Shown in pieces: positions 3,001 to 9,000 of a DNA stretch of 9,014 nucleotides. The position numbers are program-made. Location of the stretch: the IMG/VR virus record IMGVR_UViG_2551306491_000001, positions 1 through 9,014 of that record; one strand, 5' to 3'. The first letter of the stretch is position 1; the number at the start of each line of letters is the position of its first letter. Source of the DNA: a virus (taxonomy: Duplodnaviria > Heunggongvirae > Uroviricota > Caudoviricetes).

Positions 3001-6000
3001 ACCATCCAGTTCATCCTTAACTCTGGCAATAAAATCATTATTGCGAACAGGTTTTTCGCCGCACAGTTTCCGCGCCTCATTAACCATCTTTAACAGCATC
3101 TGGCTGTCGATTGTTGCAGCCGGAAACGAAGACTGATTTGCAATATTGTTAATCATGCTTTTGTCCTTTTCAGATAAAAGAAATCCCCGCGAGTGCGAGG
3201 ATTGTCATTCATTGTCGATATTCACCTTTATCGCGAACACCTTTACCGGTTTATCTCCGAAGTGTGTATGTGTGATTGTCTTGATTTTATATCCGTCATA
3301 CGGGACGTTAATTCTGCGACTGAAGTCGTCGCGCTTCGGATATCCCTTTGTGATAATCAGGCGGTCATACTTACGGTTAACGAGGCGCTTTTTCCAGTAG
3401 TCATTACACAGGCGATACTCTTCCGTTTTCTCTCCGCGAATCATGGCATCGAAGTATTCACCTTTAACGGCAAGTTGCAGGTTAGCCACGGTTAACCTCC
3501 TGCTTCGGTGCTGCTGGCATTTCACGCCAGTGCGTAACTGAGTGCGGATCCGGATATTCGGTGCCATCATCCCAGCGATTACCATTCCACATTGCAGACC
3601 ACATCTCACCGTCTTCATACATGACCATTACCGGAATTAACTTATCCGGCATTCGCTCACTACAGCTTATCCAACCATCCGGAATTACCGGAGAGTTGCC
3701 ATTCACAAGGTCAGCTCGAACATATAGCGTGTCATCATGGTGCTGATTGTGGCTGCACCACGTTAATTCGCTTAACTCGCCATCTTCTGGCCATACTCCA
3801 GCCGTTTGCAGCCAGATATGGGCTGGCGCATCTTGGCAAGGTGTATTAACTGGCAACTTGTAAGTTTGGCTTACAGGTTCTGCACTATCAGCTTCGCGCC
3901 GCTTCTGTAGCTCTGCTGCCATCGCTCTCACGACTTCAACTGGTGCCCTTGCAGCAAACTCTATGTTGGTGATCAGCTCATTAAGATATTGCTCGCTTGG
4001 GTAGCATTTCTTATTGTTAACGGTGGTCATTAGATAGCTCTCTCAACAACAAGTAATTCGTCGTAGTCATAATCCGTTTCGGAACCATCCGTACCGAACA
4101 GAGTCACTTTGTCACCTTCCATCCAGAAAGATTTAACCGCACATCGTTTGCCTTTAGATGTTATGACCACATCACCTGGGGTTACATCTTCAGCGCGAAC
4201 TTCTACTGTTCTCATAATGCTGACCCTCTTTGGTGAAAACGCCTGATGCAATACTGTTTATGATGCTGTCAGTACAGGGAGTAGAAAGCTGGGCATCTCC
4301 AGCTATTTTCATGACTTCGACATCCGCATATCGAATACCGAGGTGTATCAGACCTGCTATACCTGACTTAAGTCGAACATTTTCCATAAACAGATCCTTT
4401 TCCCGCTGTTTAACGGCCTCCAGCTCAACACGCAGTTTCTCAAGCGTTAGGGCCATCTCTACGTTCTCCTGCTCAAGACGTCGGATGTGTTGCTGTCTTT
4501 TATCCAGTTCGTCCAGCAGTGCAATCACATCGGGATCACTATCATCAACTACTGTTACGCGTGATTTTTCATAATGTTCGTCTGCAAAAGTACGCCCTAT
4601 CTTAAAATATCCGTCATCACCCTCACCGGAACAGGCATAAACAACATGTGCTCCAGATATGCGCTGTATTGACATTTCCTCGTCACAAACAGAGCATTTA
4701 GGCGCTGGTTTTGGTGAATAACGTTCACGTAACGTCAGGTAGTAAATCTCATTCACTGTTTATTTCCTGTACGAAGCTCAGCGGCAAAAGCTACTGCGTG
4801 ATCATGATGTTCAAGTGTGTATGCGCACTCAGCAAACATCTCCACGCCCTGCGCACGTACTTCAGCCAGAAAAGCATCGGTGGCTGGGGTTTCGCTGTGG
4901 TGCAGGGCATCGTTGATAATCATTGCAGCAACACCAGCCTGCCCTGCATCCGTGACCGACACATGCTCAAGAGTTACGGCCATTGCGTGTTTCAGTCCGG
5001 CGTTCTCTGCCACCAGCGCCGCGAGATTAGTCTCAAGCTCTGCAATACGGCACATAGCATCAATATTTGTGTCTTCCAGCCGCTTAATTTCATCCAGTAG
5101 TGCCAGTGCCACCGATGGCGTGAACGCCATACGAAACGCCACAAAATTTTGATGCATAGGTTCTGTTTCTACTGCAACTGCCGCATCTCGCAGTGCCTGA
5201 TAGTCAATTGTCATTCTCGCCATCCTTCACAGTTGTAATCACGACAGCCTTCAAAATCATATGGGCTGTACTGCCAGGTTATTTTTCCGCAATGCGGACA
5301 ATTCCAACGCACCTTCCCGCTTCGCGACTTCTTTCTTCTGTTCTGCTCTTTCAACCAGTCAGGCATGACCAAACCTGCGCCCTGAACCATTGTTCTGCGG
5401 TTAAAGTTATTGATATTGAACGTCCGGTGCTTTGCTGCATCAGCAATGGAAAATGGCAACCAAACTATTCCTGGTTCGTTTTTGTTGGCGACGCTAAAGA
5501 TGGTCGCTTTACTGAAGTCATCTGTTGGCAATCCACCGTGTTGAAGCCAGTAAACATCGTTGCCGTTCCAGCTACCTTTTTTGTAGGCCACATACGCAGT
5601 ACAATCTGGCTCAATCAGGCTTTCTGTAGGGATGTACTGGCAATCAACGTGCCACACAGCCATTGCATCCACGCTATCAGCGCAAACAGGCTGATCGATA
5701 TCTCGACCACAATTCCAGGATTTTTGGGCTTCTTCCAGCGTGTAAACATGAGCGCGATCGATATCAGAACTGTAACCATTGCCGTTATGGCAATGGAATG
5801 AGGCGTTATTACCCACAGTTTCACGCAAGCACATCATGTAAAAACGGTTATTCACTGGCTGCCTCCTTTACGCCACATCGCATTCAGATATTTGTTGTCA
5901 TTAACAGAACCGAAACTCTTTCTCTTAAGCAATTCCTCTCTCGATGGCATTGGCTTTACGCGTTGGCGAATAATCATTTCTGCCGGAAGAATGCCGGGAT

Positions 6001-9000
6001 TGTATGCAAGTCCTCTCATGATTTACTCTCCACGAACTGGTCAACGGCCATGCTAAGTGACACACCTAAAGTCTCGATATGCTGCTGAATATCCTGTAGC
6101 GTCTGCGCCTGAGATAACAGGATTTCACGGTTGCATAATTCTTTAACCAGATGCTCAAACTTGCTGTAATAACCGATACGGCTTAGTGTTTCTTTCCCTG
6201 CATTCTCGCCTTCTTTGATAATTCCTCTTTCGCTAAGAATCAGATCGTGTTTGGTTCCGGTAATAACGTATTTGCCTAGGTCGATGTTTAGCTTCATTGT
6301 TTTCATTGTTAATTCCTCAGTCATTACTGATAGCGCCATAGCGTGAGCGGTAATTACGCAGGCGCGGGTCGATATATTCAGGGAATTTGTCTATTGTCGC
6401 TTTTCGCAACGGTCTCATTGCTGTTTCGTTTGTTCGGTCCTTCTCCTGTTTTAGCGCGAGTTGTATATCGCGTCGGTACATCCGTTCTGCTTTTGTTTCT
6501 GGTGTCAGAGCAAGAAACGCGTCGAAATTGTTTTTGATATTTCCCAGCACCTCCGCCTTGGAGCTACCGGAGCAGTTGCGCGGGTCATCCGCACCATACA
6601 GAGGCGCTGGCATAATGGGAGCCTTATTTTCAGTAATCAGAAAGGAGGGTAATCGTTCTGGCTGTAACCATAATCATCTGCATGATTATGGCTTACGTTT
6701 TTAGAGCGATTGTCTTTATCTTTGAGGCTGGCAACCATGTTGGCGATAGTTTCTGGTTGCTTGCCTTCTGCCTTTTCTTTAAGGGTTTGACCTGTTTGTG
6801 CAATAAACGGGATGCGTATTTCCATCTGGTAGCTGTCTGCGCCAGTCTTTTTGTTTGTGGTTAATACTTTCTGGAGCACTAACCCGATTTTCTTTCCATG
6901 AAATTCAGGTGCAACAAATTTACTGGCGGAAACCATATGTTGCGTTAATTGTCCAATCCCGGCACACCCCATCATGGCGTGAACGACATTTGCGCCAAAT
7001 TTGTTTTCCGTGCCGTCATTTTTCTGAACACAGACGCTAAGATACTGGATTTTACGTCCGTCGTCGGATTCTCCAGAAAACTCAATAAATTTGGCTCCTT
7101 TTTCTGATTGCTTGAGTTCTGCTTCAGTAATGGTAATTATGTAAGCGCCAGTTTCGTTAATAAAACCACCTTGCCCTGCGGTCAGTGCTGCTTCTTCGTT
7201 ATAAGTAAAAATTACGTTGCTCATGCGGCGTTTTCCTTAATTTGATGAACATTATTGATGCCGTAGTAATCACAAACAGTGGCATCGACGAAAGAGAGAT
7301 CGTTATCAATCTCATTGGAATCAAACATTCCCATTGGGGATTTAACAGTGTCTGCACCGTTGTTTTTCGTGGTGAAAAAGAACTGGTCATCGCGGGTAAG
7401 AGTGCGAAGAACTATAGTAAACATGCCTTCGACAGTGATTTTCTCGTCCAGCATTTTGCCGATAGTCTTCATTTTCACGCGCCCCATAGGGGTTTCTTCG
7501 GTGTGCGCAAGAAAATAGACTCTCAGGTCATCAGGCGCATCCTGTGCAGCCTTAATGACCTCCCATGCGTGGCGGCCTATCTCAGTAAATTTATCAAACG
7601 ATTTTTCTTCTGAGCGGCGCATAAACTCATTGCTCATCACATACTGGAAGTCATCAACAATAACGATTCTTTTTCCGTATTCGTGAGCACGCTTAATTAC
7701 AGCAACTATTACGTCCCATTTGTCAGTGGTAACTACGGTTCCTTTTTTTGCTCTGGCATCCCATGCAAGCCAGTTTTTTGATTTAAATGGTAGCGGCTTG
7801 CCTATTGGTTTTATAAGTATTGCTTCCTCTGGATTGATATTTCTCATGCTGGTTGATTTTCCGGTGCCAGACTCACCGAGTATTAATATCGCAGTTCCCA
7901 TAATTCACCTCAGAATGGTAATTCGGATGGGGAGGAAAGAAATTCGCGCTCATTCATGCGCTCTCTTTGTGCCTGCCATAAGCAAAGTTGTTTCTTTGAT
8001 TTATCTCCCGCTTTACGCCAGTAACGAGCCTCAGCAATGTGATACTCTCTTTTTAATCGACTTAACTCTGGGGTTTTCGCCAGTTCTACCGGAATCATTT
8101 TGACCTCCATTTTCTGTAGGCTTCTACGGCTTCACGAAACATCTTTTCATCGCCAATAAAAGTGGCGATAGTGAATTTAGTCTGGATAGCCATAAGTGTT
8201 TTATCCATTTTTTGGAACTCCTGGCTGATTAAGTATGTCGATAAGGCGTTTCCATCCGTCACGTAATTTACGGGTGATTCGCTCAAGTAAAGATTCGGAA
8301 GGGCAGCCAGCAACAGGCCACCCTGCAATGGCATATTGCATGGTGTGCTCCTTATTTATACATAACGAAAAACGCCTCGAGTGAAGCGTTATTGGTATGC
8401 ATATAAAAAGGCCCTCACACTGGAGGGCAAAGAAGATTTCCAATAATCAGAACAAGTCGGCTCCTGTTTAGTTACGAGCGACATTGCTCCGTGTATTCAC
8501 TCGCTGGAATGAATACACAGTGCTTATTCGTACTAATAAAATACCCAATTTTCTGTTTCTTGGTTGTGTCCAAAGTTATATTCAATATCTGTGAACCGCC
8601 CCGGGTTTCCTGGAGAGTGTTTTATCTGTGAACTCAGGCTGCCAGATCATCGTTTCCGATGGAAGCATAATAAGCTTTTTCTGCTTCTGCCGGAGGAGTA
8701 TGGCCCAGCCTTCCCAGCAATCGTCGATTGTTATACCAGTCCACCCACGTTAGTGTGGCCAGTTCCACTTCTGCACGGTTTTTCCAGCTCTTACGGTGTA
8801 TTACCTCCGCTTTGTAAAGACCATTGATGCTCTCAGCCATCGCGTTGTCATACGAGTCGCCTGTACTCCCTGTTGATGCCAGTAATCCGGCTTCTTTTAG
8901 TCGCTCCGTATAGGCCAGTGACACATACTGAGAGCCTTTATCGCTGTGATGGATGGTGCCAGACGGACGACGGGCCCACAACGCCTGCTCCAGCGCATCC

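Follow-up and report, generated by a model that had tools for sequence, protein, structure and literature searches.

Lambdoid phages carry a recombination module that a 2025 survey describes as an annealing protein, an SSB and an anti-RecBCD protein (PMC12315714). In phage HK620, the Sak4 annealing protein and the SSB have been characterized experimentally, with the SSB stimulating Sak4 (PMC5928155). The mechanism of Abc2, the anti-RecBCD protein with which P22 hijacks RecBCD, has likewise been described (PMC9836394; PMC5928155). In HK446, gp27 (Oad2), encoded beside the recombination genes, was shown experimentally to inhibit the OLD defense nuclease, in a region that the authors of that study call a hotspot of anti-immunity genes (preprint 10.64898/2026.07.10.737580). 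Here we describe a related locus, a block of four open reading frames (ORFs) at positions 5211-6613 of a caudoviricete sequence (IMG/VR record IMGVR_UViG_2551306491_000001, positions 1-9,014; this whole 9,014-nt stretch is referred to as the window). The ORFs encode proteins of 98, 96, 55 and 214 amino acids (aa). An earlier note, made from the sequence alone, took them for a co-translated unit. We instead consider it highly probable that the first gene, abc2, closes the recombination module, that the other genes are independent accessory cargo rather than parts of a four-gene system, and that the 214-aa gene is a self-contained element.

abc2 and the early-left operon

The 98-aa protein is identified by homology as Abc2, the final gene of an HK620-type Sak4-SSB-Abc2 recombination module. 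It matches the Pfam family Anti-RecBCD_p2 (PF11043; E = 3.6e-35; 120.5 bits against a cut-off of 25), with residues 1-98 covering profile positions 1-97, and aligns from end to end with the P22 Abc2 chain in the Protein Data Bank (PDB 8b1t_A; E = 8.7e-32; residues 1-98) at 59% identity. Conserved features include the N-terminus (MPAPLYGADDPR-CSG), the C-terminal IDPRLR-YRSRY and Pro68, which lies inside RP(L/F)RKAT and has been proposed to occupy the active site of the host isomerase PpiB (PMC9836394). Similar to HK620, abc2 directly follows the Sak4 and SSB genes, at the distal end of the module, and the two upstream proteins are 99 and 98.5% identical to HK620 HkaL/Sak4 and HkaK, respectively. 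This result mainly corrects the earlier note, which could place none of the four proteins in a family. The first gene would have a known function and a solved structure (PDB 8B1T), the 98-, 96- and 55-aa proteins reach the Pfam thresholds of PF11043, DUF5405 and DUF2737, and the 214-aa protein belongs to PHROG 2457.

Homology thus strongly supports a Sak4-SSB-Abc2 module, in which Abc2 would redirect RecBCD to the phage's own recombinase rather than block it. The distance of the window protein from the studied P22 and HK620 alleles, to which it is only 59-62% identical, weighs against this reading, and for that reason we only infer that the window allele would bind RecC. At least two allelic types of Abc2 occur, with a mutual identity of about 60%; their ends are conserved and the RecC-contacting helices (residues ~17-66) are divergent. 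The window allele shows ~60% identity to those of P22, HK620, Sf6 and HK446 and 99% to that of Stx1a/Stx2a-converting phages, and it is of the Stx-converting-phage type rather than of the studied P22/HK620 type.

All four ORFs are present where the earlier note had located them. They lie on the minus strand, with transcription running from high to low coordinates. The main features of the region are as follows:

7221-7901, minus strand: Sak4-type (RecA/Rad51-like) single-strand annealing protein, first core gene of the recombination module (phrog_2872, E = 1.5e-108)
6637-7224, minus strand: HK620-type phage SSB, HkaK (phrog_743, E = 8.7e-67)
6317-6613, minus strand: abc2, anti-RecBCD protein 2 by homology, 98 aa, ATG start (PF11043; phrog_656; PDB 8b1t_A)
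6016-6306, minus strand: DUF5405/P2 Orf83-family gene, 96 aa, ATG start (PF17399; phrog_154)
5852-6019, minus strand: DUF2737 gene, 55 aa, ATG start (PF10930; phrog_1117)
5211-5855, minus strand: P7 Upf87.6-family gene, 214 aa, GTG start (PHROG 2457, E = 8e-118)
5622-5855, minus strand: apparent repeat 1 of the 214-aa protein, residues 1-78, a beta-hairpin plus alpha/beta unit (alignment; secondary structure from the model)
5406-5606, minus strand: apparent repeat 2 of the 214-aa protein, residues 84-150 (hhalign of repeat 1 against repeat 2; alignment)
5214-5315, minus strand: predicted C-terminal Cys4 zinc ribbon of the 214-aa protein (four cysteines invariant or nearly so)
4753-5223, minus strand: Ead/Ea22-like ORF immediately downstream (PF13935, E = 1e-10)
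8296-8354, minus strand: lambda cIII thermoregulator RNA element (Rfam RF01804, 88.5 bits, E = 4e-21)

The region is the early-left (PL) operon of a lambdoid prophage, as indicated by the cIII thermoregulator RNA on the strand of the block; kil and cIII reading frames lie beside this element. Upstream of the block are cIII, kil, a small ORF, the Sak4-type ATPase and the SSB gene, and downstream are two Ead/Ea22-like genes, followed by DUF551, ASCH, AlpA-like regulator and integrase genes. The block therefore does lie between the recombination module and the Ea22-like genes, as the earlier note had it. The zinc-ribbon gene that was said to head it is transcribed last of the four. The ATGA overlap of the 96- and 55-aa ORFs (6019-6016) and the GTGA overlap of the 55- and 214-aa ORFs (5855-5852) were also described correctly. 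With the 96-aa start (an alternative 107-aa reading is open from 6339), the 98- and 96-aa ORFs, by contrast, are separate, and the 10-nt spacer between them contains the Shine-Dalgarno sequence GAGGAA. The GTG start of the 214-aa gene is preceded by the Shine-Dalgarno sequence AGGAGG, and its 3' end overlaps the next Ea22-like ORF by 13 nt.

A scan of positions 4100-8200 returned no sigma-70-like promoter (6.6 were expected from shuffled sequence), and no minus-strand terminator was found inside the block, which makes co-transcription of the four ORFs plausible. We infer that the stop-start overlaps result from the close spacing typical of PL-operon genes, without an implied common function. 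Each ORF has a family match, and the ratios of nonsynonymous to synonymous substitution rates (dN/dS) against homologues are 0.05-0.40 across the four, in agreement with purifying selection; together, these results indicate that all four genes are real. Plus-strand ORFs across the block matched no phage family, and neither tandem repeats nor Rfam families were found inside it. Scans of the four proteins against PADLOC-DB matched no defense-protein model, and NCBIfam returned nothing.

The arrangement itself is already known. Many Escherichia coli O157:H7 genomes contain a prophage with 100% identity to the block, in which PGAP names the products hypothetical protein, phage anti-RecBCD protein, DUF5405 family protein and DUF2737 family protein. 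The block represents a mosaic lambdoid early-left operon of catalogued families. In E. coli strain 9000, IS1203 copies are inserted in this prophage, both within the ASCH gene and upstream of cIII; unlike in that strain, the ASCH ORF of the window (3205-3618) is intact. A fragment of an IS3-family transposase lies at the end of the window (8634-9005, minus strand).

Distribution of the four genes

The occurrence of the parts argues for their independence. In a survey of 5,426 complete E. coli genomes, the whole 1.4-kb block was at least 80% covered in 34. The 214-aa gene was matched in 279 genomes and was full length in 248, and 181 of its 289 places were plasmid-borne. The abc2-DUF5405-DUF2737 trio gave any match in 1,375 genomes and was at least 80% covered in 168. 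We further inspected the loci of the 80 closest abc2 alleles, 64 of which lie on contigs with enough downstream sequence; this sample may include clonal relatives, a caveat to our conclusion. DUF2737 follows abc2 in all 64 loci, and DUF5405 intervenes in only 7. After DUF2737 comes a variable slot, which holds a gene of the EaE/HkaH/Oad2 type in 39 loci, the 214-aa gene in 2, Sf6 gp22 in 2, an Ea22-like gene in 1 and other genes in 20. Seen from the opposite end, 80 viral contigs with a near-identical 214-aa gene have varying upstream neighbors, most often the P7-type Upf86.8, an ASCH-like protein, or Upf87.4 and less often DUF2737 or an HkaH-like gene.

The DUF5405 gene is an optional cassette that is inserted or deleted, start codon to start codon, between abc2 and DUF2737. 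It is precisely absent in HK620, P22 and three sampled relatives (L009, L035 and L016); where it is missing, the abc2 stop codon and GAGGAA are joined straight to the ATG of DUF2737 (compare L009, 4790-4860). Its 96-aa product matches PF17399 (DUF5405) with 25.0 bits against a gathering cut-off of 21.6 and phrog_154 with E = 2.3e-32, and a sequence search of the PDB returned nothing for it. PHROG 154 is labeled 'replication initiation protein', a designation for which we found no support, as the 96-aa protein has no Pfam initiator domain or PDB match. The label appears to stem from the position of P2 orf83 beside gene A; in the RefSeq P2 record, Orf83 is called a DUF5405 family protein and gene A is listed under its own name.

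abc2 and DUF2737 thus form the only stable pair in the block, and the constancy of DUF2737 beside abc2 suggests an unrecognized functional link. The 55-aa protein is a clear family member (PF10930; E = 1.8e-29; 101.8 bits against a cut-off of 25) and a homologue of HK620 HkaI and HK97 gp38. One alternative to our interpretation is that these two genes alone are a functional pair, in which the basic 55-aa protein would serve as a cofactor or modulator of the RecBCD hijack by Abc2 or as a shield from defenses that sense RecBCD tampering. We regard this as possible, if doubtful. The adjacency holds whatever the upstream recombinase (Sak4/SSB 45, Erf 11, other 21) or the downstream gene, is retained even with DUF5405 in between, and recurs in P22, HK620, Sf6, HK446 and Stx phages. 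The two families are also of near-equal spread in phage-collection records (255 for DUF2737 and 232 for Abc2), with a nearly equal breakdown by organism. On the other hand, DUF2737 is also found behind RecT-type modules with an Abc1-like gene in place of abc2, and the adjacency may be inherited linkage.

That all four genes form one co-functioning module, for example RecBCD-directed or anti-defense, co-translated for fixed stoichiometry, is very improbable. The ATGA and GTGA overlaps, the lack of an internal promoter or terminator and the constant abc2-DUF2737 adjacency would fit such a module. The distribution data largely refute it, as the four genes are not conserved together: 34 genomes have the entire block, whereas the full 214-aa gene occurs in 248 and some portion of the trio in 1,375. 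Of the 64 abc2 loci, 57 lack DUF5405, and the 214-aa gene is found mostly on P1-like plasmids, and also in Vibrio, Pseudomonas and Acinetobacter phages, without the other three. Furthermore, cloned P22 abc2 is reported, in the account that PMC5928155 gives of Murphy (2000), to be active without these genes.

The 214-aa zinc-ribbon family

The 214-aa protein has no Pfam, NCBIfam or PADLOC match and is 98% identical to Upf87.6 of P7 and 26-45% identical to its homologues in Vibrio and Pseudomonas phages. Homologues, all annotated 'hypothetical' in the search listing, come from Enterobacterales, Yersinia, Acinetobacter and Methyloprofundus as well as from P7, SJ46, IME10 and Pseudomonas F116, many Vibrio phages and Burkholderia phages. 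When all cluster representatives (50% identity) were searched, 1,176 clusters, in phages of Gamma- and Betaproteobacteria, were assigned to the family at E ≤ 0.001, nearly all with proteins of 200-220 aa; the longer members showed no Pfam match when scanned for fused domains. Literature searches on Upf87.6, phrog_2457, DUF2737 and DUF5405 returned nothing useful.

The body of the protein looks like a tandem duplication of an alpha/beta domain of ~70 aa. Its two halves align in register (hhalign profile-profile comparison, P = 3.8e-4), and betaproteobacterial relatives of 126 aa consist of a single unit of ~70 aa followed by a linker and a CxxC...CxxC ribbon (L127 and L128, both at about 4001-4381), which points to the 214-aa protein as the duplicated form. 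Across 38 diverse homologues, the invariant residues are G27, Y28, A43, Q44, V70, D71, Q73, N99, D100, R154, M156, G161, N185, C186, C189, G190, W194 and C204. Repeat 1 holds the invariant G27-Y28, A43-Q44 and V70-D71 with Q73, and repeat 2 holds N99-D100. The AlphaFold model is confident (predicted local distance difference test score, pLDDT, 93) and matched no solved structure, and searches of PDB sequences with the protein and its profile gave only noise and weak zinc-ribbon matches.

The family has a C-terminal Cys4 zinc ribbon, as judged from alignment and model, and zinc binding is predicted. C186, C189 and C204 are present in all 38 homologues and C209 in 35, and the ribbon strands (182-185 and 192-195) lie in a segment with a mean pLDDT of 85-90 per 10-residue block (181-214). 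Zinc-ribbon Pfam models and ribosomal eL43 gave only matches below threshold. Of the motifs listed in the earlier note, FHCHNG (residues 20-25) and CPHCG (186-190) are present; in the ribbon's second half, the spacing is C204-x4-C209 instead of C..C. The Cys/His-rich N-terminal half does not hold up as a conserved metal site: its cysteines are variable (C9 in 28, C22 in 22, C58 in 11 and C49 in 5 of the 38 homologues), and although H21 is present in 35, distant members carry tryptophan at this position and a hydrophobic residue in place of C/H72. We therefore rejected a conserved metal site in the N-terminal body. The body is acidic (isoelectric point 5.6), and the linker and ribbon are basic (9.1).

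The 214-aa gene keeps no fixed partner. Across 41 diverse loci, no neighboring family was common to more than about 4. The neighbors are typical of early regions and include RecT, RdgC, SSB, O/P, NinB, DNA methyltransferases and Ead/Ea22; in Vibrio phage D80, the homologue follows an exonuclease and a Mu Gam-like gene, and in Pseudomonas F116 three methyltransferase genes precede it. Within 4 kb of the homologue, 7 of the 41 loci have ASCH/PUA-like genes, which belong to two families (among them L003, 4891-5472; L089, 3327-4004; L004, 6644-7393; L090, 2064-2729; L127, 4336-4650). In Pseudomonas F116, Acinetobacter and Allopusillimonas, the ASCH-like gene and the homologue are direct neighbors; in P7 and Vibrio H8, a single gene or a single insertion sequence separates them. 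In the window, the ASCH gene lies 1.6 kb downstream of the 214-aa gene.

As to function, we tentatively propose that the 214-aa protein might be a stand-alone host-takeover or counter-defense factor. It would be made early in lytic growth and act alone on a conserved host or nucleic-acid target, with the zinc ribbon and basic linker supplying the nucleic-acid or protein contact. The P7 homologue lies in an operon controlled by C1 operators and the window gene in a PL operon without an internal promoter; in both, the gene should be expressed early in the lytic cycle and silent in the lysogen. A more far-reaching version, which we hold with greater doubt, is that the protein founds a widespread family of single-gene, lytic-early effectors, with a fold that has no solved counterpart, which would neutralize a conserved component of host immunity or DNA repair from the Oad2 slot. 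Two considerations speak against a counter-defense role. It is suggested only by position and neighboring genes, and the family is highly constrained, with a dN/dS of 0.08 and polar residues (Y28, Q44, D71, Q73, N99, D100 and R154) that are invariant across Enterobacterales, Vibrio, Acinetobacter and Pseudomonas. Such conservation is closer to what an enzyme or a universal-ligand binder would show than to the pattern of a fast-evolving inhibitor of one defense system.

Accommodating this constraint, the 214-aa protein could be an enzyme or ligand binder in nucleic-acid metabolism or modification, perhaps acting with the ASCH/PUA-like proteins, and not a defense inhibitor. The low dN/dS and the many invariant polar residues are in line with this alternative, as are the nearby ASCH-like genes and neighbors such as RecT, RdgC, SSB, Mu Gam-like proteins and DNA methyltransferases. 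We nevertheless consider it unlikely, as neither a catalytic motif nor a fold match was found, 34 of the 41 loci have no ASCH neighbor, and, with H21 and position 72 unconserved in distant members, no metal site in the body is supported.

A role in guarding the lysogen, as a prophage defense or superinfection-exclusion factor, was proposed in the earlier note and accords with the frequency of such genes in prophage accessory regions. It is very unlikely here. The lytic-early operons of the window and P7 argue against a lysogen-protecting role, since a gene without a promoter of its own inside a repressor-controlled operon should be silent in the lysogen; in addition, no PADLOC model matched, and homologues also occur in phages not recorded as prophages. 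A protein tyrosine phosphatase, finally, as noted in the P7 Upf87.6 record, can be dismissed on the conservation of its motif: residues 20-32 (FHCHNGNGYSSDI) do fit the pattern [LIVMF]HCxxGxxx[STC][STAGP]x[LIVMFY], which explains the note in that record, but only 22 of the 38 homologues have the would-be catalytic Cys22 and 11 the pattern, the loop lacks the arginine of HCx5R, and there is no phosphatase Pfam or fold match.

Comparison with described phages

Overall, the earlier observation was largely correct and its interpretation only partly supported. The expectation that this region carries host-takeover or anti-defense cargo is borne out by Abc2 itself and by Oad2, which holds the slot of the 214-aa gene in HK446. 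What remains of interest is limited to the uncharacterized, widespread zinc-ribbon family and the unexplained constancy of DUF2737 beside abc2. The former is a lead for counter-defense searches, being common, strongly conserved, confidently modeled, without a solved structural relative and located in the slot that encodes an anti-OLD protein in HK446. The 55-aa DUF2737 gene, nearly inseparable from abc2, is a second lead; to our knowledge, all studies of the Abc2-RecBCD interaction have left it out.

Among described proteins, P22 Abc2 (PF11043; PDB 8B1T and 8B1U) resembles the window protein over its entire length and in its position directly after the annealing protein and SSB, from which the window protein differs as a divergent allele that is only a predicted RecC binder. 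The 96-aa protein is 96% identical to Sf6 gp24 (96-99% over Sf6 gp24 and HK446 gp29) and 34% identical to P2 Orf83 (tblastn, E = 5e-9); the replication label of PHROG 154 has no support for this family. P7 Upf87.6 and its relatives in PHROG 2457 (those of SJ46 and IME10, a Vibrio phage 'putative zinc finger protein' and F116 gp06) share the two repeats and the Cys4 ribbon with the 214-aa protein, whereas their neighboring genes differ in every lineage.

At the level of the operon, similar gene orders are found in HK620, Sf6, HK446 and P22 (erf-abc1-abc2-DUF2737-eaE in the last). The closest is the HK620 early-left operon (hkaM-sak4-ssb-abc2-hkaI-hkaH-hkaG), which shares the gene order sak4-ssb-abc2-hkaI with the window, near-identical Sak4 and SSB, an HkaI (DUF2737) of 92% identity, and Ea22-like and DUF551 genes next. 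The window differs in the DUF5405 gene inserted between abc2 and DUF2737 and in the 214-aa gene, which stands where HK620 carries hkaH. The same slot, after DUF2737, before the Ea22-like genes and beside the recombination genes, is occupied in HK446 by gp27 (Oad2), a relative of P22 EaE and HK620 HkaH that has no similarity to the 214-aa protein (BLASTP E = 6.3). In the window, the Oad2-related segment instead sits in the next gene: the Ead/Ea22-like ORF at 4753-5223 is 40% identical to HK446 gp27 over 77 aa (E = 4e-10), with the same segment also related to EaE and HkaH, and may represent an Oad2-like domain fused to an Ea22 N-terminus.

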